A stretch of 64,000 bases of DNA from Isurus oxyrinchus (taxonomy: Eukaryota). The first letter of the stretch is position 1. Each line of letters begins with the position of its first letter. Shown here piece after piece: positions 11,414-61,378 of the stretch. A model generated the notes under the pieces. It searched no databases and was not told the DNA's origin. It saw only the letters and a program-made list of their open reading frames with translations. Both the position numbers and the translations under genes were made by a program. Location of the stretch: contig JANJGN010000011.1 in NCBI GenBank assembly GCA_026770705.1, forward strand, positions 21,452,001 through 21,516,000. Reading direction: 5' to 3'.

Positions 11414-14400
11414 TAAAACACTATACACCACATCCCCGCCTTTCTCAGTAATTGAGAGACATATATTTCAATGATTTGTCTCCAAAGTCTAAAGAAAACA
11501 CTTAAGCTTAACGAGAACATTCAACTTATTAAATATTCCAAGTCTTGTATTAATTTACCAAGCACATAGTTATAGTCATTTACAGCATAGAAGGAGGCCA
11601 TTTGGCCCTTTGAGTCCATGCTGGCTTCCCACAGAGAAATCCAGTCAGCGCCACCCCCACTCTTGATCCCTGTAGACCTGCAATTTTACATCCATTAAGC
11701 ACCCACCCAACTTCATTTTGAAATCATTGATTGTTTCTAATTCCACCACCCTGTGGTCAGCAAGTTCCAGATCATTACCACTCACTGCATTAAAAAAAAG
11801 TTGTTCCTCACCTTCCCCTGCATCTCTTGCCCAAATCTGTGTCCCCTAGTCCTTGTACATTAGCTAGTGGGAAGCGTTTTCCCTTGTCTACCTTATCTAA
11901 GTCTGTTGTAATCTTGTACACCTGTTTTAAACCTCCCTTTAATCTCCTTTGCTCTAAGGAGAACAATACCAGTCTTCCCAAGCAAACCTTGTAACTAAAC
12001 TGCCCCCACCTCCCAACATTCCTGGAACTAAACTGGTAAATCTCCTCTGCACCTTATCTTCCCTGCTTTTGTACTCAATGCCTCTATTTAAGTTATATAC
12101 AATGCGATGAAAGACTTGTTAATCAATTGAAAATAGCTCACTTTGTAACCTTTTCAAGGAATACGTAACCAACTTCTCCATTAGCTCTTGGTCAATGCGG
12201 TTTGATTTTTTGATGAGTGAAACTTAGTTTGGAAATTTACTGAACTCTTTGCAGTTGAATGGAGGCCTATTGTCACTTCTGACCATTTGTGGGATTCCAA
12301 ACAAAGCAAAAAACTGCTCAAGTTTTGGGATGAATGCTTTTGATGAAGTAGACATAACTAATTCCATGAATGGGAATCGGCTGTAGTTGTCAGTGCCAAA
12401 AGCAGATGTTCACCATTGTGCAAGTCAACACTAACTTCAATCATGGTCCTAGAGGTAGTTTAGGCACCTTGAAAGGATCATGAAGATTTGACATTTTCAT
12501 TTCATTTGCTATTAGGAGTTGTTTGGTTTTGACAATTCCCTGGTGATCTTCATGTGCTACATCAACAGCACATTCTCTCAATGATTGTGAGATGACAATG
12601 CAATTATTCTGTAACACGAGATCAGATGTCATTGTAATGGTGAGCTTGTGTCGAACATTGTGAAGACCTGTAGTGTGTGAGATTTCATTTGTAGATGCTC
12701 TTTCAATCATGTCTTGGCAGTTTTGTGAGCCGTCATATGTAGTTGCAATGCTTCATCTTGTTTTGTTGCCACTTTAATGCCAGCTAGTTTTAGCAATGTT
12801 TGTTTAGCCACATTTAGGTTTACGTAGTTAAGATGTTGTTCAGCAACCTTTTCCCCACAACTAGTGGGACTGACACCACTGTGCCTAACGGATGCTGTGA
12901 AAGATAGTCCACTGGCTTCAGCTTGCCTGGCTGATACTCAACAAGGAACTTGTACTCTTGTAGTTTGAGTATCCAATGCTCTATTCAAGTAGCTGGTTTG
13001 CTTTGTGGGTTGTTGAACAAGTTTACTAATGGTCAATGATTGGTTATGGCTTCAAACTCGCTGCCATGCAAATAGAGCTGAAAATGTGAGATACCTCATG
13101 TGATTGAGAGCGCTTCTCTCTCTGTTTTTGAATAATGTTGCTCTGTAGGTGTTAGCGATCTGCTTTCCATCTCCACCAATGATGGGTTCCCTGCCTTGTC
13201 TTTTTGCATGAGAACTGTACCTAAACCAACTGGGTTGGCATCCACAACTAGCTGGATGGTTTTTTGCAGGTTCAAAATAGGCATTTTTGCAATTTGCTGA
13301 TAACCGTTGTTTTATCTGGTGTACTGCCGGTTTGTATAATGTAGTCCACTCCCACTTGGCGGTCTCTTTTGTCAGATCGTGTAAAGGGACCGATAGCATA
13401 GCGAGGAGAAGAATGAAGCAACTACAGTACTTGATGAGTCCTAACAGACTCTGGACTTCCTTCATGTTTGTAGCATCCGCAACATTTGCAATGGCTTCAA
13501 CTTTCAGTGGATCAGTTGTTACCCGTTCAACACTGAACACGTGAGTGATTGAAGAAGCACTTGTTTTTGCTCAAGGTGAGGTTACATTCTCTAAGATGTT
13601 GTAGGCATGCCTCGAGTTCACCTTCTGTGCAAACGTAGATGAGAATGTCATTACCAATGTTCAGCGTGCTTTCAAGCCCTTGAAGTGCAGACTGAATCTC
13701 GTGCTGAAAAGCCTCAGCTGCTGAATTGACTCCAAAGTTGAGCCTCTTGTATTGAAAATGTCCAATGTGAGTGGAGGTTTCAGATACCTTGATTCTTCTG
13801 CAAGCAGGATTTGATGGTATCTGCATTGAGATCAAGCTTAGTGAAGTGTTCAGCAACATGGACTTTATGATGCCACCAATTGTCGGTGCCAAGTGTCTTT
13901 CTCGTTGTATGGCTTGGTTTGATGACTTCATATCAACACAGCCTCTAACCTGGTTCTTGCTCTTAGGTTTCATGAGACCTAAGGTGTAGACTCAACCCCA
14001 ACTTTCTCCATAAATCAAGGTCAAATTGACATTGAAGTTCCTTCACACTCTGCTTCCTGACATGAAATGGTATTCACTGCCAGTGATGCACTACTGGGGA
14101 CAAAATGGGGTCTACATGCAACTTACATGTAAAATCTCTCTGTTTGCTGATACCAATGAAGCAGCCAGCACACAATTCGAGAATATATCCATATGATATC
14201 CATAGGAATCGTGTTTGTGATGGCAATCGTGCAGACCTGTTGCTGTGTGAAAACTGATGAGCGTGTTACATTCTCCAGATATGACAAAGCACATATTCAT
14301 CCTGGTGTCTATGAGTGAAATTGGCATTTCAAAAGTCCTGTGAATTTTCAGTGATTTCATGATTGTAAGGGAAAGTTTTTGTGTTCCTTGGTTTGCAGAA

Positions 14401-15717
14401 AATGAGGCAATCCTGAAGTTTGCTGAACGTTTTGTCTCCCATGACATTGACAGATGCTCCTGTGTCTATGAGAGCATCTATGTCCGAACACCCAATGGTT
14501 ACTGTCATGCATGGCTGTTTGCTGTGTCTGAAAGAGAGCACAAAAGTATGTTCAGGGCCATCTACCTCAATTTTGGCTACATTCTGTTGCCCTTTTCTGT
14601 TGGTAGTGGTCTTGGTAGTTGATGAGCAATAAACATGAGCAAAATGATTGGATTGCCTACAAGCTTTGCACTGTTTACTGGTAGCAGGACACTCCGTGGC
14701 ACTGCCACAGTGGAAACATTGTCGCTGTTCTGTTTGTGAGGCTGCTGTTGTTGCTTTACAGGTGGGTTCCTGGCACATGGGTGATGAACAGTGTTTACAG
14801 GAGTTGAACTTGGAGTGATATTTGGCAGCCTCAACTTCTGTAGCTCTGGACTTAAAGCAAAAGTGAGCTTGCTAACTCCAACAGCTCTGGCAGTTTTCTG
14901 TCTTTCTCAAATGCTTTACAGCATAGTTGGCTAGAGGGACAACCTTTGTTGATTTGTGTTTTTATTTCCCTTTCGACATTTTCAACTTCACCAAAGTCAC
15001 ATTTGGCTGCTGGTCACCTCCAGCGTGGGCAAATACAGGTCAATTGTTTCATTAGCTTCTTGCTTTGTGCGTCTGAAGATGATTGATTCATGTATTGTGT
15101 TTTTCTTGGGCATAAAATAGGATGTTAGTGCATTGGTTGCTGAGTTGTAGTAATTTTGCTGAGGTGTAAATGTTTCAAAAATGTCTTCTAATTCTTAACT
15201 GCCTTAGTGGAAAAGTAAGCCTGTTCTCTTTTGTCCTCTGTGATAGCAAAATGCCATAGGCCCTTTAAAATGTTACAGCCACTTTTGCCAACATGGAAAT
15301 ACAGATGGCTCTAAAGGTACTTCAAATGTTGATAGATTGGGTACGGGCAATGCCATTTTTATCAGCTACAGGGATGAAACTTGTCTGTAAAGCTTTCCCG
15401 CTTGTTTGCTCTGAGCTTATGTGTCTTTGAAACAGCCTAAGTGTTTCTCTAAATCTGCAACTTAAAGTGTTGTGTTCTCTGCAGAAAGTAGGTAAAACCC
15501 TCAAAATTCACACCTTCTTATTTTGCTTTATCTTCCTCATCAGTGTGGGGTTCTTGGGACTGGAGAATTAAAAGTCCAAGAGCAACATGGCTTCTTTATT
15601 GAACAGCTTCTTCATACTTTGCTCCTGCTTGCAGACTTCCTCTGTTGGTACAATTGTATATGGTAGCTTCAAGTGAACAAAATGAACATTACGCTTTTCA
15701 AAACACTCTGCACTACA
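11414..15717 (-). mobile_element. Ty3/Gypsy LTR retrotransposon, decayed
   Basis: Domains in order on minus: gag knuckle CFHCG..CKAC..HFAHVYC, protease ALIDTGASVNV, RT YKRLNFGVNSAAEAFQ / IGNDILIY, RNase H VDANPVGLG..YSKTEREAL, integrase AHEDHQGIVKTKQLL. A PPT (AGAAAGGCGGGGA) abuts TGTGGTGTATAGTGTTTT at 11432, which resembles the 5' LTR start TGTAGTGCAGAGTGTTTT at 15717. Confidence 0.9.
11575..12090 (-). mobile_element. CR1 LINE 3' fragment nested in the Gypsy
   Basis: CR1 3' UTR end (aaatggcctccttctatgctgta on minus) plus upstream ORF2 tail. Confidence 0.7.
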
Positions 15718-46418: not shown

Positions 46419-49400
46419 TTACAGTTCCCAGCCCCCCAGTGCACTGTGGCAGAAAGGTCTTAGACAGCGGCCCTTCCCCATTGCGCCTTTGTGGCGGCTG
46501 CCCCAAGCTTAACTGTGTCCCTCAGCACGTAGTCCTGGACCTTGGAATGTGCCAGTCTGCAACACTCGGTCGGGGACAACTCTTTGCGCTGGAAAACCAA
46601 CAAGTTTCAGGCAGACCAAAGAGCGTCTTTCACCGAGTTGATGATCCTCCAGCTGCAGTTGATGTTTGTCTCAGTGTGTGTCCCTGGGAACAGCCCGTAG
46701 AGCACAGAGTCCTGTGTCACAGAACTGCTCGGGATGAACCTCGACAGAAACCACTGCATCTCTCTCCAGACCTTCTTCGCAAAGACACAATCTACAAGGA
46801 GGTGAACAACGGTCTCTTCCCCACCACAGCCTCCTCGAGGGCAACGTGCAGAGGGGGTGAGACTCCTGGCGTGTAGGAAGGATCTTACAGGGAGGGTCTT
46901 TCTCACCACCAGCCAAGCTACGTCTTGGTGCTTGTTGGAAAGTTCTGGCGATGAGGCATTCTGCCAAATGACTTTGTCAGTCTGCTCAGGGGACCATCCC
47001 ACAGGATCCACCCTCTCCTTTTCCCTCAGGGCCTTTAAGACGTTACGTGCCAACCACTGCCTCATGGACTTGTGGTCAAAGGTGTTTCTCAGCATAAATT
47101 TTCCCACGAGGGATAGGTGGTACGGCACGGTCCAACTACTTGGAGCGTTCCACGGCAGCGTGGCCAGACCCATCCTTCGTAACACTGGCGACAGGTAGCA
47201 CCTCAGCACGTAGTGACACTTGGTGTTTGCATACTGAGGGTCTACACACCGCTTGATGCAGCCACACTCAAAGGTGGCCATCAGTATGAGGGCGATGTTG
47301 GGCACGTTTTTTCGCCCTTTATCTAGAGGCTTGTACATTGTGTCCCTGCGGACACGATCCATTTTCGACCTCCAGATAAAGCAGAAGATGGCTCGGGTGA
47401 TCGCCACCACACATGAGTGTGGAATGGGTCAGACCTGTACCACATACAGCAACAGCGAGAGTGCCTCACACCTGATGACTAGGTTCTTACCCGCAATGGA
47501 GAAGAAGCGTCGCTCCCACATGCCCAGTTTCCTTTTCACCATAGGCACTCGCTCCTTCCAGTTTCTAACGCGTGCCCTGGTCCCTCCGAACCATATCCCC
47601 AGCACCTTCAGGCCATCAGCCCTGACATTGAAGGGGACAAAGGATCGGTCAGCCCAGTACCCAAAGAACATGGCCTCGCTCTTCCCACGATTTACCTTGG
47701 CTCCCGAGGCCAGTTCGAACTGGTCGCAGATGTGGATAAGTCTGTGCACCGACAGCGGATCTGAGCAGAAGACGGCGACATCATCCATGTACAGGGAGAC
47801 TTTGACCTGAGTGCGTCCACTGCCTGGGAGTGCACATCCACCATGCAGGTGTGCAATATTCTGTCAAAGGCCTTCTCCTGATCCAGGCTGATGAGGCAGG
47901 TATCCACACCCCTGTCCTGTACATAGGCAATTGTATCCCTGAGCAGCGCGAGGCTGTCAGAGATCTTCCTGCCCGGCACAGTGCAGGTCTGGTCAGGGTG
48001 AATCACCAATTCCAGAGCGGATTTGACCTGATTGGCGATGACCTTGGACAGAATCTTATAGTCGACATTCAACAGTGAAATGGGTCACCAATTTCTAATT
48101 TCCTCCCTTTCCCCCTTGTGCTTGTAGATGAGGATGATAATGCCTTTCCTCGTGAATTCTGACATACTGCCGGTGAGGAGCATACTCTTGTACACTTCTA
48201 GCAGGTCTGGGCCAATCCAGTCCCACAGAGCCGAATACAACTCCACCGGCAAGCTGTCACTTCCGGGAGTTTTACTCTTCTCGAAGGACTCAAGGGCCTC
48301 AGTCAGTTCGTCAGGAGTTAGCGCTTTGTCCAGACTCTCCCGTGTCCTGTTGTCTAAGACCTCCGTGATAGAGGACAGGAAGGATTGGGAGGCCGTGCTG
48401 TCTGTGGGCTTCACGTCATACAATCCGGCATAAAAGGATTTGCTGATCCTCAAAATGTTGGACTGTAATAACTTTACTGAGCCATCTTCTTCCTTCAGGC
48501 TGCTGATCACAGAGCTCTCTGTGTGTACCTTTTGGAAGAAGAAACGTGAGCATGTCTCGTTCTGCTCCACGGAGCGGACTCTGGACCGGAAGATGATTTT
48601 GGAGGCCTCCGAGGCAAAGAGCGAGGCTTGCTGGCTCTTCACCTCTTGGAGTTCCTCCTTGACATCGACCCCCATCGACTGCAGCCGGAGCAGATTCTGC
48701 ATGTTTTTCTGGAGTCGGGACATTTCCCTCTGTTTCTTTCTAGCTTTCTGGATGCCTTTGAGGACAAAAAACCTCTTGATGTTTCCCTTGATCGCTTCCC
48801 ACCAGTGTGTCAGTGACTCAAAGTGGGGTTTCATGGTTCTCCAACCTTTGTAATCCCTCTTGAGCTCCTCAATGTTCTCTGGGGTCAGCAGTTTCACGTT
48901 TAGCTTCCATGCCCCCTGCCAACCCTTTGGTCTTCCTCTAAGTGACAGTCAGCCAGTAGGAGGCAGTGGTCAGAGAAGAACACCGGCTTGACGTCGGTGG
49001 ATCTGACTGTGAATGCACGGGACACAAACAGGAAGTCTATCCTGGAACAGATGGACCCGTCAGGCCGCAACTAGGTGTATCTACACTGCGCTCCGTCTGC
49101 AGGGTTGCTGAAGACGTCGTGCAGCTTGACATCCTTTACTGTTTCCATCAGGGATCTGGATGTAGCGTCCAATCTGCTTTCGGCCCTGCCGGATCGTCCA
49201 GCCGCATCGATGATGCAGTTGAAGTCACCGCCCAGAATGATCAGCCTGGAGGTCGCCAGCAGCAGTGGGAGCTGCTGAAAAACCTCCAGCCGCTCAGTCC
49301 CTTGTGACGGGGCGTAGACGTTAATTAACCGGAGTGGAGCATTCTTGTACATTACGTCTGCTACGAGGAGGCGTCCACCCACCACCTCCTTAACCTGGGA

Positions 49401-49649
49401 GACGGTGAAGCTGCCTCCCCGCAGCAGAATCCCCAGGCCGGAGGAACGAGAGTCGTTTCCTCCCGACCAGATCGATGGCCCGTGGGACCACCATCATGAC
49501 CATTGCCTGTAGGAGCTGAGGTGCGGTATCGCACACTCCTGCAGAAACAACAGGTCAGCTTTGACCGTGGCAAGGTAACCCAAGGTCGCAACACATCGCG
49601 TAGTAGATTTAATGCTACGCACATTTATGGATACAATCTTTACACCCAT
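46419..49649 (-). pseudogene. Tx1 ORF2 (APE endonuclease, RT, zinc finger), disrupted
   Basis: Starts MGVKIVSINVR. Contains LINVYAP, GGDFN, FSDH, KTPGSD, NVDYKILSK, SLDQEKAFD, YMDD and CPRGGC..ETVVHLLVDC. Frameshifts are present, and a deletion near 47830 removes the QG-PLSP RT motif. Confidence 0.88.
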
Positions 49650-49659
49650 TTTAAAGCAG

Positions 49660-51181
49660 TTAGTCGCTTACCAAACCTGTTGTCTCTGAGAGTTCCTTCA
49701 TGCCCGTGGTGTGCTCAAATTGCTTCACTTGGGATGGGCTGAGGAAAGTGTCCTGAACCTCCCCATTCGAGATGTTCTGCTCAGGTGGCATCTGGGGGTC
49801 CGTGCAGAGAGCGGGGTTTGAAATGTCCTCTGTTGAAGAAGCTTCTCCAATCCTCTCCCCCTCTGGGGTGTTGCTGCTCCCGGCTTCCCGGAGCTGGGGT
49901 GCGCTGAGCGCCTCACTGTTCCCAGATTCCTGGGGTTGTGGTGCACTGGCCTCTTCAGGTTGTGGGCCAAGTTGGGGTGCGCTGGTCTCCTCATTGTCTC
50001 CAATGTTCTGGAGCTTGGGCGTCTCATCCTCCAACTCCCTAGCGTTTTGCCGCTTCTTCTGTTGGTGCCACCCTGGCCCTTCTTCGTCCGAAGAGCTGCT
50101 GCTCTTGTTATCCGTGTCGGATAGGAGACGCCTCTTGCCTCTTGTCTGGGAAGTGGCTTGGTTTCTTTTTAGCCCCTTCTTCCTTTTGGCTCTTTTCACC
50201 AGCTGCCACTCCCCCTGCTGCTTTCCCACTGCTGCCTCCTCCTCCTCCGTTGATTCGCTCTCCTGAGGAGTGGGAGGTTCAGGGGGCAGTGCTGTTGGTT
50301 GGCCGTCTGTTGCCCCAATCTTTTCCTCCACCTTGTCTCTCTCTGTGTCCTCCTTTGTCCCGTTGTTCTCCCTGGGGGCCTTGGTAGTTGGAGTGACACG
50401 AGGCATTTCTTCTGCTTCCCCCTCGTTGGCTTTGGCTGCCTGTGCATAAGTACGGCAACGTTTGGGGCAGGTCTTGTAGAGGTGACTTGCCTCGCCACAC
50501 AGGTTGCAGCACTTAGCCTGTCTACAGTCTTTTGTCTGGTGCCCTTCCTGTTTGCAGTTCTTGCAGAGGACGGCGCTGCAATTGGCCGCCACATGACGAG
50601 ACTTGCTGCATGAGCGACAAAGTTTGGGTTGCCCAGCTTAGGCAAGGTAACCACGGCTTCCCCCGATAGTGAATCTGGAAGGGGGGTGGAAAACGGCTCC
50701 CTTACCATCGGTCTTGAGCGTTACCTTAACCTGGCATTTACATGTCCAGATCCCCAAATCATCTCTAACCGCGGTGCAGCTCCCAACCTTATGGAAGTAC
50801 CTGGTAAGGAAGGTGAGCACGTCAGCGACAGGGACGTAGGGGTTGTACATTTGCACCGTCGCAACCCGTTCTCATTGCAACGGCAGAGCAAAGAGCGGCT
50901 CTGTCGTCAGGATCTTCATTTCTGACAGGTCTTTCTTTTCCTCAAACACCTTCAGGAGTTTGACACAAGCTGCCACTTGCTTGAAAGTCACATCAAAAAA
51001 ATCCAGTGCTGGGGAAATCCTGTAGGCAGTAGATCTCCGCAGCCTCGAAATCACACAGCTTGAATAGGATCCTCTTGGTGAAGAAGGTCCTATCCATTCC
51101 TGTTCCTTGCTCGCTGCCCTTCACCATTACTCGGATGGTGTTAGGTACCCCATGGTAAGGGGTTTGACTGGTTATAGCCAT
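49660..51181 (-). pseudogene. Tx1 ORF1 (gag-like, CCHC knuckles), frameshifted
   Basis: ATG at 51181 (MAITSQTPYHG), FFDVTF, MYNPYVP, three knuckles including CKNCKQEGHQTKDC and CNLCGEASHLYKTC, and a low-complexity tail. Confidence 0.85.
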
Positions 51182-51639: not shown

Positions 51640-52445
51640 CAAGGCAGACAAGTAACATTCACACCACACAAATGCCAGACAATGACCATCTCCAACAAGA
51701 GAGAATCTAACGATCTCCCCATGACATTTAGTGGGGGACTCAGTGATGGTAATGCCATTATCAACATCTTGAGGATTACCATTGATTAGAAACTTAACGG
51801 GACCAGCCATATAAATACTGTGACTGCAAGAGCAGGTCAGAGGCTGGGAATTCTGCGGCGAGTAACTCATCTCCTGACTCTCCAAAACCTGTCCTCCATC
51901 TAAAAGGCACATGTCAGGAGTGCGATGGAATGCTCTCCATTTGCTTGGATGAGTGTGGCTCCAACAAAACTCAAAGTACCTGCCACCTCGAGGACAAAGC
52001 AGTCTGCTAGATTAGAACCCCATCCACCACCTTGAATATTCACTCCCTCCATTACCGACACACAGTGGCAGCAGTGTGTACCATATAGAAGATGCAGTGC
52101 AGCAACATGCCAAGTCTCCTTCAACAGTAAAACCCACAAATCTGCAACCTCTACTTTCAAGAAGGACAATAAAAGGACAAGGACATCAAATGCATGGGAA
52201 CACCACCACGTGTAAGTTCCCCTCCAAGTCACACTCCATTCTGACTTGGAATTATATCGCCGTTCCTTCACTGTCACTAGGTCAAAATCCTGGAACTCCC
52301 TTCCTAACAGCACGGTGGGAGTACCTATGCCAGATGAACTGCAGTGGTTCAAGAAAGTGGCTCACCACCATCTTCCCAAGGGAAACTGGGATGGGCAAAA
52401 AACACTGGCCTTATCAGCAATGCCAATATCCTAAAAAAACAAATG
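51640..52445 (+). mobile_element. Family A CR1-group LINE 3' fragment
   Basis: Colinear with 618-1128 and the reverse complement of 54705-55500. Confidence 0.8.
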
Positions 52446-52580
52446 AAATGAAAGACAGAGAGACTCACTATGCACCGTTGTTTTCTGGGTGTTAACCTTT
52501 CTGTTTCTGTCTGAAAAAGCTTGTTAACAGGGATTTGAGTTGGGGAGAGGTCTGGAGTGCTTATGTGAAATATTCTTATT

Positions 52581-53742
52581 GTAACTCTTTCAAGTACAAA
52601 CACGTTTCTATCTGTTTCAGATGAAGTTACATTGTTTCATAGTTTTGCCATTGTGAGATTTGAACTCTTGAGGTTACAAACCCAGTACCATAACCACTTG
52701 GCCATTTAGGCCAAGCTATACTCTTATTGTAACTCTTTTGAGTACAAACCCGTTTCCATCTGTTTATTCAGATGAAGTTACATTGTTTCATAGTTTGCCA
52801 TTGTGAGATTTGAACTCTTGATACTCTTTCGAGCACAAACCCGTTTCCATCTGTTTCAGATGAAGTTACATTGTTTCATAGTTTGCCAGTGCAAGAGTTG
52901 AACTCTTGATCTTGGGGTTACAAACCCAGTACCATAACCACTTGGCTATTTAGGCCAAGCCAAGAAGTTATATTGTTTCATGTATGTAACTCTTTCAAGT
53001 ACAAACACGTTTCCATCTGTTCCTATTCAGATGAAGTTACATTGTTTCATAGTTTGCCATTGTGAGATTTGAACTCTTGATTTCTTTCGAGTACAAACCC
53101 GTTTCCATCTGTTTCAGATGAAGTTACATTGTTTCATAGTTTGCCATTGTGAGATTTGAACTCTTGATCTTGGGGCTACAAACCCAGTACCATAACCACT
53201 TGGCTATTTAGGCCAAGCTATACTCTTATTGTAACTCTTTTGAGTCCATTGTGAGGTTTGAACTCTTGATGGTAACTCTTTCAAGTACAAAGCCGTTTCC
53301 ATCTGTTTCAGATGAAGTTACATTGTTTCATAGTTTGCCATTGTGAGATTTGAACTCTTGATACTCTTTCGAGCACAAACCCATTTCCATCTGTTTCAGA
53401 TGAAGTTACATTGTTTCATAGTTTGCCATTGTGAGATTTGAACTCTTGATACTCTTTTGAGCACAAACCCATTTCCATCTGTTTCAGATGAAGTTACATT
53501 GTTTCATAGTTTGCCATTGTGAGATTTGAACTCTCGATCTTGGGCTTACAAGCCCAGTACCATAACCAACTTGGCTATTTAGGCCAAGCTATACTCTTAT
53601 TGTAACTCTTTCCAGTACAAACCCATTTCCATCTGTTTCAGATGAAGTTACATTGTTTCATAGTTTGCCAGTGTGAGATTTGAACTCTGGATCTTGGGGT
53701 TACAAACCCAGTACCATAACCACTTGGCTATTTAGGCCAAGC
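52581..53742 (-). repeat. Head-to-tail array of 10 units of a ~141-bp tRNA(Thr)-like SINE
   Basis: Units start (plus coordinates) at 52581, 52729, 52823, 52986, 53082, 53231, 53272, 53363, 53451 and 53602. The minus-strand head TAGCCAAGTGG..TTTGTAA..AGATC..GAGTTCAAATC carries A- and B-box-like motifs. Confidence 0.85.
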
Positions 53743-54084
53743 TATACTCTTATTGTAGCTGCCTCAGTTATTAAATCACTAATTAGCTCTAATTATTCAT
53801 CAATTTGAGGGTTGACTTCTCTAAGGCTTTTATTGACCATCTCCACCTCATAGATCCTCATTCTCAGCTGCAAACCCATTCCTGGATTCATTACATCTAA
53901 TGAAGCGATCTCCTCCAGACATAAACTCCTGCTTACACTCTTGTGTGTGATTAGATGACTTCTTTGTGATCTCTGGATGATTATTGGAGGACAATCATTC
54001 AATCACTATGCCCCTAGTTTCTGAAATGCTCTGAAAACAGTTTCTCTTACTAACTCACTCCCTGCTGGACTTGGTTCCCTAGAA

Positions 54085-54550
54085 TAATACAGCAGAGGAG
54101 TCCATTTGGTGCACTATTCCTGTGCTGGCTCTGTGAAAGAGCTGCCCAATTAATCCCAATGCCCTACCCTTTTCTCATTGCCGCGCTAAATTTCCCCCCT
54201 CACATATTTATCCAATTCCCTTTTGAAAGTTAATATTAAGTCAGCTTCCACCAACCTTTCAGGCAGCGCATTCCAGATCATGACAACTTGCTGTGTAAAA
54301 ATAATCCTCCTCACCTCCCCTCTGGTTCTTTTGTCAATTAACTTAAATCTGTGTCCTCTGGTTAATGCTGCATAAGAGTTTCCGCTTATTTACTCTATCA
54401 AAATCTTTACTGGTGTTGAACAGCTTTATTAAATTTCCCCTTAACCTTCTTTGCCCTAAGGAGATCAATCCCAATTTCTCTACTTTTTCCACATAACTGA
54501 AGTCCCTCATCCTTCATTCCATTTAATGAAGCTTTTCTGCGCCCTCTCTA
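54085..54550 (-). mobile_element. CR1 LINE 3' end
   Basis: Minus strand FYTASCHDLECAA/IWNALP region and a CR1 tail. Similar to 33915-34330. Confidence 0.7.
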
Positions 54551-58956: not shown

Positions 58957-59054
58957 AATAAAAACAAAAAACTGCGGATGCTGGAAATCCAAAACAAAAA
59001 CAGAATTACCTGGAAAATCTCAGAAGGTCTGGTAGCATCGGCGGAGAAGAAAAG

Positions 59055-59093
59055 AGTTGACATTTCGAGTCCTCATGACCCTTCAACAGAACT
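59055..59093 (-). ncRNA. Minimal type I hammerhead ribozyme-like motif (inverted copy)
   Basis: AGTT-CTGTTGA-A-GGGTC atgag GACTC-GAAA-TGTC-AACT. Confidence 0.55.
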
Positions 59094-59417
59094 AGGTGAA
59101 TCCAAGGAAGGGGTGAAATATAAGCTGGTTTAAGGTGTGGGGGGGGGAAGGTGGGGGTGGGGGGGGGGGGGAGAAGTGGAGGGGGGTGGTGTGGTTGTAG
59201 GGACAAGCAAGCAGTAATGGAAGCAGATCATCAAAAGATGTCAAAGACAACAGAACAAAAGAACACATAGGTGTTGAAGTTGGTGATATATATCTAAACG
59301 AATGTGCTAATTAAGAATGGATGGTTGGGGAATTAAGGTATAGCTCTAGTGGGGGTGGGGGGAGCATAAAAGATTTAAAAATATTTAAAAATAATGGAAA
59401 TAGGTGGGAAAAGAAAA

Positions 59418-60860
59418 TTCCCACCTACATCCGTGATTCCTCTGACACCTTATGTCACATCAACAATTTCCAGTTCCCTGGCCCCAACCGCTTCCTCTTC
59501 ACCATGGACGTCCAATCCCTCTACACCTCCATCCCCCACCAGGATGGTCTGAGGGCCCTTAGCTTCTTCCTCGAACAGAGGCCCAAACAATCCTCGTTCA
59601 CCACTACTCTCCTCCGTCTGGCTGAACTTGTTCTCACGTTGAACTATTTCTCCTTCAACTCCTCTCACTTCCTCCAAATAAAAGGTGTGGCTATGGGTAC
59701 CCACATGGGCCCCAGCTATGCCTGTCTCTTTATGGGGTATGTGGAACATTCCTTGTTCCAGTCCTACTCCGGCCCCCTTCCACCACTCTTTCTCCGGTAC
59801 ATCGATGATTACTTTGGTGCTGCTTCATGCTCTCGTTGGGACTTGGAAAAATTTATTAATTTTGCTTCCAATCTCTACCCCTCCATCATTTTCACGTGGT
59901 CCATCTCTGACACTTCCCTTCCTTGACCTTTCTGTATCAATCTCTGGTGATAGACTGTCCACCAATATCCATTACAAGCCTACCGACTCCCACAGCTACC
60001 TCGACTACAGCTCCTCATACCCCGCTTCTTGTAAGGACTCCATCCCATTCTCTCAGTTCCTTCGCCTCCGTCGCATCTGTTCCGATGATGCTACCTTCAA
60101 AAACAGTTCCTCTGACATGTCCTCCTTACTTAACCGAGGTTTTCCATCCACGGTCGTTGACAGGGCCCTCAACCATGTCCGGCCCATCTCCCGCACATCT
60201 GCCCTCACGCCTTCTCCTCCCTCCCAGAAACATGATAGGGTCCCCCTTGTCCTCACTTATCACCCCACCAGCCTCCGCATTCAAAGGATCATCCTCCGCC
60301 ATTTCCGCCAACTCCAGCATGATGCCACCACCAAACACATCTTCCCTTCACCCCCCTTATCGGCATTCCGTAGGGATCGTTCCTTTCGGGACACCCTGGT
60401 CCACTCCTCCATCACCCCCTACTCCTCAACCCCCACCTATGGCACCACCCCATGCCCACGCAAAAGATGTAACATCTGCCCCTTCACTTCCTCTCTCCTC
60501 ACCGTCCAAGGGCCCAAACACTCCTTTCAAGTGAAGCAGCATTTCACTTGCATTTCCCCCAACTTAGTCTACTGTATTTGTTGCTCCCAATGTGGTTTCC
60601 TCTACATTGGAGAGACCAAACGTAAACTGGGCGACCGCTTTGCAGAACACCTGCGGTCTGTCCACAAGAATGACCGAAACCTCCCTGTCGCTTGCCATTT
60701 TAACACTCCACCCTGCTCTCTTGCCCACATGTCTGTCCTTGGCTTGCTGCATTGTTCCAGTGAAGCCCAACGCAAACTGGAAGAACAACACCTCATCTTC
60801 CAACTAGGCACTTTACAGCCTTCCGGACTGAATATTGTATTCAACAACTTTAGGTCCTGA
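59418..60860 (+). pseudogene. Penelope RT C-terminal half plus GIY-YIG endonuclease, one frameshift near 59920
   Basis: FTMDVQSLYTSIP, GVAMGTHMGPSYA, RYIDDYF, then NLVYCICCSQCGFLYIGETKRKLGDRFAEH...GLN. Confidence 0.92.
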
Positions 60861-61262
60861 ACTCCCTCCTCCATCCCCACCCCCTTTCTGTTTCTTCCCC
60901 CTTCCTTTTGTTTTTTCCAATAAATTATATAGATTTTCTTTTCCCATCTTTTTGAATTATTTTAAAATATTTTTAAATCTTTTATGCTCCCCCCACCCCC
61001 ACTAGAGCTATACCTTGAGTGCCCTACCATCCATTCTTAATTAGCACATTCGTTTAGATAATATCACCACCATCAACACCTATGTGTTCTTTTGTTCTGT
61101 TGTCTGTGACATCTTTTGATGATCTGCTTCTATTACTGCTTGCTTGTCCCTACAACCACACCACCCCCCTCCACTTCTCTCCCCCCACACAACTCCCCCC
61201 CCCTCCTCCCCACACACACACCTTAAACCAGCTTACATTTCACCCCTTCCTTGGATTCACCT

Positions 61263-61301
61263 AGTTCTGTTGAAGGGTCATGAGGACTCGAAACGTCAAC
61301 T
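61263..61301 (+). ncRNA. Minimal type I hammerhead ribozyme-like motif
   Basis: Stem I AGTT/AACT, core CTGTTGA, stem II GGGTC/GACTC, GAAA, palindromic ACGT and a GTC cleavage triplet. Confidence 0.65.
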
Positions 61302-61378
61302 CTTTTCTTCTCCGCCGAATTTTCAAGCATTGTTTGACGTTTAAATCAAGCAGCTTGACTCTGATTGGTCAAGGAATT

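Follow-up and report, generated by a model that had tools for sequence, protein, structure and literature searches.

A mosaic tandem array of a tail-less tRNA-headed SINE in which five shortened units begin at one shared head position

The array and its surroundings

The window analysed here is a 64-kb stretch of DNA in which a tandem array of ten units of a short element occupies positions 52570-53757, with the sense RNA on the minus strand; no further copies of the element were found in the window outside the array. The array is flanked by 3′ fragments of what we take to be CR1/HER1-like LINEs, at 51740-52440 (plus strand) and about 54080-54520 (minus strand). Also in the window are a broken LINE (46607-50720, minus strand), presumably Tx1/L1-like, with a zf-RVT match (E = 6.5e-11) and a zinc-knuckle-like ORF1, and a set of broken frames at 13052-14871 (minus strand) that looks by eye like a fragment of LTR-retrotransposon gag-pol; the two frames tested gave no Pfam match. 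A Penelope-like element at 58960-61320 has broken-frame RVT_1 (E = 2.4e-6) and GIY-YIG (E = 4.8e-4) matches, both below the Pfam cut-offs. Its pLTR-like repeats are inverted and carry hammerhead-like motifs with a degenerate core at 61267 (plus strand) and 59089 (minus strand).

Five units (1, 3, 5, 9 and 10) have a full head and reach the 5′ end of the element, GCTTGGCC, at 52716, 52960, 53218, 53589 and 53742, as a sequence-only reading of this DNA had claimed. The short units (2, 4, 6, 7 and 8) end on ...GAACTCTTGAT at 52822, 53081, 53270, 53362 and 53450; these five end points, taken from the same reading, are all exact, and each short unit begins precisely at element base +51, which is position 46 of the tRNA cloverleaf. 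An 11-nt linker, TATACTCTTAT, separates units 1 and 2, 5 and 6, and 9 and 10, leaving four blocks: unit 1, units 2-5, units 6-9 and unit 10.

All ten units lie on the minus strand. The array opens with a target-duplication-like repeat (52570-52583) that is 2 nt shorter than the right copy and whose last 4 nt are also element 3′ end. Unit 1 (52580-52716) has a full head, a complete 3′ end, a 6-nt deletion in the +51 region, the family-wide allele 53623A and an extra T. The first linker (52717-52727), locus-specific and TSD-like, leads to unit 2 (52728-52822), which starts at +51, has a complete 3′ end and a loop 3 nt longer, and would be the distal half of a dimer with unit 3. Unit 3 (52823-52960) has a full head and a 3′ end without the last 4 nt; its T-arm (52892-52908) has become, via several clustered changes, a perfect 8-bp inverted repeat around one base, the pattern expected from fold-back template switching. 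At the junction of units 3 and 4 lies a 24-nt patch (52961-52984), 17 nt of which come from the unit's own interior (16/17 match); it resembles a head-to-53646 join among the rows listed for run X1 (contigs, see below). Unit 4 (52985-53081) starts at +51 and has a complete 3′ end, the family-wide 5-nt long loop and the linked 53623A; it would be the distal half of a second dimer with unit 5 (53082-53218), which has a full head, a truncated 3′ end and a gat/t/tct join (slashes mark the join) found in run X15 too.

After the second locus-specific linker (53219-53229) come unit 6 (53230-53270), of 41 bp, with a start at +51, a complete 3′ end and about 51 nt deleted internally; unit 7 (53271-53362), which starts at +51 and is joined to unit 6 by gat/ggtaac; unit 8 (53363-53450), which runs for 88 bp from +51 to +138 and differs from unit 9 at two sites; and unit 9 (53451-53589), with a full head, the family-wide allele 53706G and a 3′ end without the last 4 nt. 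The third linker (53590-53600), also locus-specific, precedes unit 10 (53601-53742), and the right target-duplication-like repeat (53743-53757) closes the array. This last junction is present without differences in an X1 contig covering 53728-53830 at a depth of 42.3.

The units differ from one another at 2-11 sites, no two of the ten being identical, and blocks on either side of a linker are not copies of each other. The array has a higher-order period of 258 bp and contains AAGAGT 21 times. Two loop variants had been described as interleaved; longer loops are indeed present in units 2 and 4, but they are unlike, with insertions of 3 and 5 nt, respectively. Every short unit precedes another unit and finally a full head, so that blocks 2+3, 4+5 and 6-9 can formally be regarded as full elements that contain internal duplications; the same blocks have the partial-SINE copies and longer terminal units that characterize SINE-derived tandem arrays.

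Head, tail and fold of the element

The element is 141-142 bp long. In its complete 142-bp form (unit 10) it consists of a 5-nt leader, a tRNA-like head (53737-53666) with the +51 boundary at 53692, and a 3′ stem-loop domain (53655-53601). The tRNA likeness of the head, proposed earlier by inspection, was recovered by Rfam, whose tRNA model matched four of the five heads with 30.2 (unit 3), 25.5, 24.5 and 20.7 bits; unit 3 lies above the gathering threshold of 29, and the head of unit 1 gave no match. ARAGORN found no tRNA gene. The triplet at the anticodon position is UGU, from which, together with general knowledge, we take the head to be of tRNA-Thr origin. A B-box motif is present in all ten units.

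The element ends sharply at 53601/53602, with no poly(A), microsatellite or simple-repeat tail, in agreement with the sequence-only reading. An 8-bp stem closes at the last base of the 3′ end; it describes the terminus better than the ACTC-GAAA-GAGT hairpin suggested before, whose exact form occurs in none of the ten units. This terminal stem belongs to the MFE fold of three of the four complete tails tested (z = −2.56, −3.72 and −2.40), while the tail of unit 4 folds weakly (z = −1.55) and has the stem in the centroid only. No run of four Ts occurs in the array, the nearest being at 52518. The CTGANGA sequence of a type I hammerhead was found on neither strand of the unit, although a loose-core descriptor does find both Penelope pLTRs of the window, and no Rfam ribozyme was detected in the unit at E up to 10. 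Long-range pairing between T-arm and tail in the 88-nt unit was considered and was not significant (z = −1.78).

Linkers and target duplication

The linker plus the next four bases is repeated at both ends of the array, and the 10-mer TCTTATTGTA occurs five times in the 64-kb window, every time in the array. Read depth falls from thousands within the element to about 80 at 53590-53598 (mean depth 39+44) and to less than 10 past 53752; the linker is therefore not element sequence. We read it as a duplicated target, the last four bases of which coincide with the element 3′ end. At this one locus, where the empty site was not seen, the repeat at the two array ends is exact over 10 bp and imperfect over 13-15 bp. 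This feature, at both array ends and between blocks, was absent from the earlier reading.

Several known element types were compared with this structure. Helitrons and DIRS elements were set aside on account of the target duplication. A 153-bp unit that includes the linker, as in a circular-template model, was rejected on the collapse of depth in the linker. TRIMp3 elements (Helenus, Cassandra) are defined, in the relevant passages of PMC10886601, by two LTRs with PBS and PPT and a TSD of 4-5 bp; here, there is no internal region between units, and the duplication is at least 10 bp long. The signature of RTE-mobilised SINEs, as outlined in part of PMC6007223, is a TSD that has T as its first base, some 10 nt downstream of a stretch of Ts, with a 3′ microsatellite common to RTE. 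At our single locus T is the first TSD position, TTT lies 16-18 nt upstream and the microsatellite is absent, so half of this signature is found.

The family in sequencing runs

Parts of the stretch are carried by 20 of the 24 listed runs, nearly all from two organisms, A (which holds the array locus) and B; a coral-metagenome run (X20, share 0.19) was left out of the evidence. Four runs were aligned to unit 10 and its flank: X24 (raw DNA reads of organism B, 1887 Mb, 16199 reads aligned), X1 (contigs of organism A), and X15 and X18 (contigs holding the family, whose RNA status is a guess and in which no discrete transcript is seen). Counts are partial, since the tables cover the best rows: for joints 15 of 204, for inserted letters 12 of 382, for loose ends 24 of 333 and for variants 40 of 104.

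In X24, depth was about 13,000 in the element and 1 in the flank, which gives 1.8-4.3x10^4 units in organism B for an assumed genome of 2.5-6 Gb; the family makes up about 0.1% of the bases read in this organism. It is dispersed, with random flanks at both element ends, and exceeds the threshold of at least 100 copies used for SINEs. Among the X24 rows listed, loose-ended reads numbered 2749+870 at the head end and 1446+555 at the 3′ end (53601/53602), in both cases flank-like, with an agreement of 0.32-0.35. Tandem copies are frequent: 1774 of 5393 head ends (33%) among these rows are joined to the tail of another unit in several registers, and full head-to-tail joins vary in register from 53598 to 53602. 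In X1, six of the nine inserted-letter rows listed join a head to a tail with 1-16 letters added, and their depth is 4-8 times that of a single locus.

Among the variants listed, allele 53706G has a share of 19% and 53623A of 26%. It had been asked whether variants of the array occur at separate loci, and they do: the 5-nt loop insertion of unit 4, the extra T of unit 1, 53706G of unit 9 and the gat/t/tct join are all found elsewhere in the family. One local duplication is therefore not the whole story, more than one template was involved and an assembly artefact is unlikely. Exact-pattern scans of metagenome, viral and prokaryote genome contigs gave no loci.

The +51 boundary

Between 53689 and 53693 the X24 depth drops from 12950 to 10560, a loss of 2390 reads (18.5%). 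The listed rows account for 2339 of these at 53692 (1007 joint and 1332 loose-end reads) and contain no other internal 5′ end. Since about 18% of X24 depth ends there, the +51 boundary is family-wide, and the random truncation that would have spoken against a fixed site does not appear among the X24 rows listed.

The joins in the array are fewer in kind than their number suggests. The join gat/actcttt makes up three of the five short joins, and the units downstream of it (3, 8 and 9) are the sole carriers of C at the equivalent of 53616; with this linked SNP there are at most three independent joins rather than five. The earlier statement that the joins differ thus holds for three types at most. 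If independent, five ends would fall on one base with a chance of about 7e-9; for three join types the figure is about 8e-5, if those are independent. The second join type shows a two-base change relative to the dominant one and occurs in X15 as well. For the third, the +51 site and the linker have ACTCTT(G)AT in common, so this join can arise by local exchange. The main join keeps both copies of AAGAGT, on which ground its origin by a simple microhomology duplication at this motif was rejected.

At the family level, 955 of the 1007 listed short-join reads re-enter the element at 53605, four bases short of its usual end, and 533 of these have one further haplotype, with a 2-nt deletion, in common (among the rows listed). 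The dominant short join lacks the last 4 nt, whereas full joins mostly keep those four bases. At least four forms of join start from +51 (to 53605, 53607, 53602 and 53664). Both distal halves that are informative and complete at the end have a long loop, whereas none of the seven other units covering the loop has one, a placement with a chance of 1/36, the two units not being independent; the share of long loops in X24 depth ranges from 4% (insertions only) to 17% (clipped reads counted), and its upper value is close to the 18% ending at +51.

In X1, 156 contigs pass from the head into unique DNA, and a passage from +51 into unique DNA is found in no row listed. If rows are ranked by count, at most 6 such contigs exist, against 34-57 expected; short ends running into unique DNA thus appear rare in organism A. 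The 1332 loose ends of X24 at +51 have an agreement of 0.78, versus 0.32-0.35 for flank-type ends, and are therefore not random. They may represent one amplified context or locus, diverged joins, another repeat at +51 or a blend with unique flanks; if unique flanks stand behind them, solo short copies would be common in organism B, and a model with a stall or cut at +51 would gain. The consensus of these ends is A-rich, 14 of its 19 first letters matching the unit start by eye and nothing beyond; a motif derived from it had no match in the window at up to three mismatches. In two X15 contigs the element starts at 53605 behind non-element DNA that looks like the +51 site, which hints at insertion directed by sequence.

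Origin of the short units

The explanation we favour, at somewhat better than even confidence, is that a dispersed tail-less tRNA-derived SINE, probably of a cartilaginous fish to judge from the neighbouring repeats, supplied an inherited quasi-dimer, the source of the short units, and that blocks were stacked at a duplicated target and then shuffled. Pol III would start at the head and pass through neighbouring units, readthrough being suggested by the lack of a T4 run in the unit. A borrowed RT would begin at the structured 3′ end, with its 8-bp stem at the last base, and insertion would proceed by target-primed reverse transcription with a duplication of 10-15 bp. A single old duplication within the element, covering +51 to +138, would have produced a quasi-dimer in which the stem at the inner 3′ end is missing its last 4 nt. 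We infer that the dimer is copied whole: with half of the inner stem removed by the main join, the outer end alone could serve as a start for copying, and both halves would spread together. The ‘truncated’ units would then be distal halves of the quasi-dimer plus their local re-duplications.

The array itself would have grown in the form TSD-(block-TSD)n, with at least two templates supplying the blocks. The stacking would have come about through further insertions into the target as it was regenerated, through unequal exchange between target copies or through both, and local exchange would later have shuffled the result. The blocks carry different family alleles (the 5-nt loop in unit 4, 53706G in unit 9 and 53623A in unit 1); at least two templates therefore contributed, and re-insertion, template switching or conversion did occur. 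Interleaving of loop variants is also explained by a dimer with two differing tails. Raw-read support for the dimer comes from organism B and not from organism A, which holds the locus, and the TSD reading comes from one locus without an empty site.

The sequence-only reading had favoured serial RT template jumping with a fixed stall or cleavage site. In this form the RT would stop, or the RNA be cut, at tRNA position 45/46, followed by a jump to the 3′ end of another RNA, and the array would be built in one reaction; we regard this as improbable. Parts of the proposal stand: +51 is a family-wide boundary and the sole internal 5′ end among the X24 rows listed, more than one template took part as the units bear different family alleles, joins from +51 take at least four forms, full joins vary in register (53598-53602), and the patch between units 3 and 4, with its counterpart among the X1 rows listed, looks like template switching. 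A fresh stall for each short unit is not supported, since 955 of 1007 listed reads show one join: short joins are dominated by a single register, unlike that of the full joins, and repeated RT stalling is disfavoured. The model also predicts many solo short copies, which appear rare in X1, and plain RNA-to-RNA jumping would not yield the target DNA found between blocks. No ribozyme was found in the unit, and we know of no RT-blocking modification at tRNA position 45, which counts against a stall there.

In a second alternative, which we hold to be unlikely, a partner endonuclease (e.g. Penelope-like) would nick existing copies at +51 and at the 3′ boundary. A new copy that starts from +51 and is completed by pairing with the head already present would add a short unit; one primed at the 3′ boundary would leave a target-DNA linker. 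It agrees with this scheme that short units in the array always precede another unit, that linker-separated blocks are not copies of one another and that two X15 contigs start at 53605 behind +51-like DNA. Joins to 53598, with TAT before the end making ATT, number 259 of 1174 listed, against about 2% by chance; in the passages of PMC11167929 on the anole Penelope protein, ATT is nicked, nicking of own repeats is proposed and RT starts in a stem-loop. The window contains a Penelope-like element, but the tail has no similarity to it or to the rest of the window (best score 36; shuffles 30-38), and the unit is without a hammerhead. Further points against the scheme are that the array has no duplicated T-arm fragment behind a head and that no target is common to the flanks (agreement about 0.35).

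That a single inserted copy was multiplied purely locally, by slippage and unequal exchange as in a satellite, seems quite unlikely to us and is largely refuted as the sole cause, unless the imported alleles arrived through gene conversion. The 258-bp period, the repeated linker, the 21 AAGAGT motifs and the SNP and join common to units 3, 8 and 9 do have a satellite-like appearance; against this, the units differ at 2-11 sites, and the rest of the family also has the 5-nt loop insertion, 53706G and two of the join types, which were therefore imported rather than made locally. An assembly artefact is very improbable: of 26 words sampled from 53451-53760 only 19 occur in the best run (share 0.73), and the array is not spanned by any read, but no two units are identical, the right junction is matched without differences by an X1 contig and the join types recur in other runs.

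The mobilising partner

The sequence-only reading saw no mobilising partner among the LINE ends of the window, and local alignment of the tail against the 64 kb likewise gave nothing above shuffled sequences (best 36; shuffles 30-38); nor was there a match between the 3′ end and a pLTR of the one Penelope-like element present. Some features of the family are nevertheless reminiscent of Penelope-like elements as discussed in parts of PMC11167929 and PMC3846280, namely the lack of a tail, a putative start in a stem-loop, tandem copies and the excess of TAT before the end. A Pol III-transcribed, tRNA-headed SINE might accordingly be moved by a Penelope-like RT that starts at the terminal stem and nicks its own copies at the 3′ boundary and at tRNA position 46, arrays growing as unlike RNAs insert into existing copies and the target overhang is copied again between them; we give this scenario little credence. 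Literature searches listed no tRNA-headed SINE with a Penelope partner.

Comparison with known systems

The present SINE family did not turn up in the literature searches, and sequence libraries such as Repbase/Dfam may contain it; the family is real and probably undescribed. HE1 is a described chondrichthyan SINE, from the animal group to which the present family probably belongs. CmiSINE (tRNA-Ala head, CORE domain and L2 tail) and SacSINE1 (>400 bp, Deu domain) are likewise tRNA-derived (PMC5499810), and they differ from the present family in the features described there. The comparisons below are likewise with the passages of the cited sources that describe each system.

The closest layouts are those that Martelossi et al. 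2024 (PMC11481361) describe for tandem SINEs in the blood clam, namely TSD-(SINE-TSD)n and TSD-(SINE)n-TSD. Both occur in the present array, the one as units separated by the same target copy and the other as a unit with a full head ahead of units that are all cut at a single point of the head, the last alone keeping the tail. In the clam account, about 3% of SINEs are in such structures, and simple-repeat tails are required; here, about 33% of listed head ends are in tandem joins and 18% of depth ends at +51, the family is tail-less, and, unlike in the clam, both layouts are nested together with unlike units.

Partial-SINE tandems are also described by Vassetzky et al. 2023 (PMC10702118) as squamate satellites derived from SINEs, a source that also mentions the Dip SINEs of jerboas, where multimers hold nearly half of the copies. 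Tandem part-SINE copies with a longer terminal unit are shared with our array; squamate satellites, as described there, tend toward long homogenised arrays, whereas the present one is short and mosaic, with target-DNA linkers. In the crocodilian SINEU-3, tandem copies sandwich a target duplication, which was read as sequential insertion (Kojima 2015, PMC4494074); the sandwiched duplication is common to both, but the description of SINEU-3 gives it a U2 head and Mariner-N4 as target, in contrast to the tRNA head and absence of a common flank here.

Non-LTR retrozymes and non-autonomous Penelope-like elements form short tail-less monomers and head-to-tail multimers according to passages of bioRxiv 10.64898/2026.07.22.740005 and PMC8557442, and the present tail-less element likewise occurs in both states. 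Both kinds, in these accounts, carry a type I hammerhead and resemble pLTRs; the present unit has no hammerhead, does not match the pLTRs of the one Penelope-like element in the window and has a tRNA head instead. For the dimer, SINEBase provides a precedent, in the sections of PMC3531059 where internally duplicated SINEs are classed as quasi-dimeric subfamilies.

Significance

The layout of the array itself is already known; the points worth pursuing are which enzyme mobilises the family and what the +51 ends are. An RT for a tail-less SINE would add a new SINE-partner pairing, and a Penelope partner would surprise specialists. If the inherited quasi-dimer is the true explanation, the family shows a SINE without tail or terminator copying from a structured end, and one internal duplication that turned into a heritable dimer. 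The array would then be a tractable case of the transition from SINE to satellite, with its history legible in the joins and linkers.
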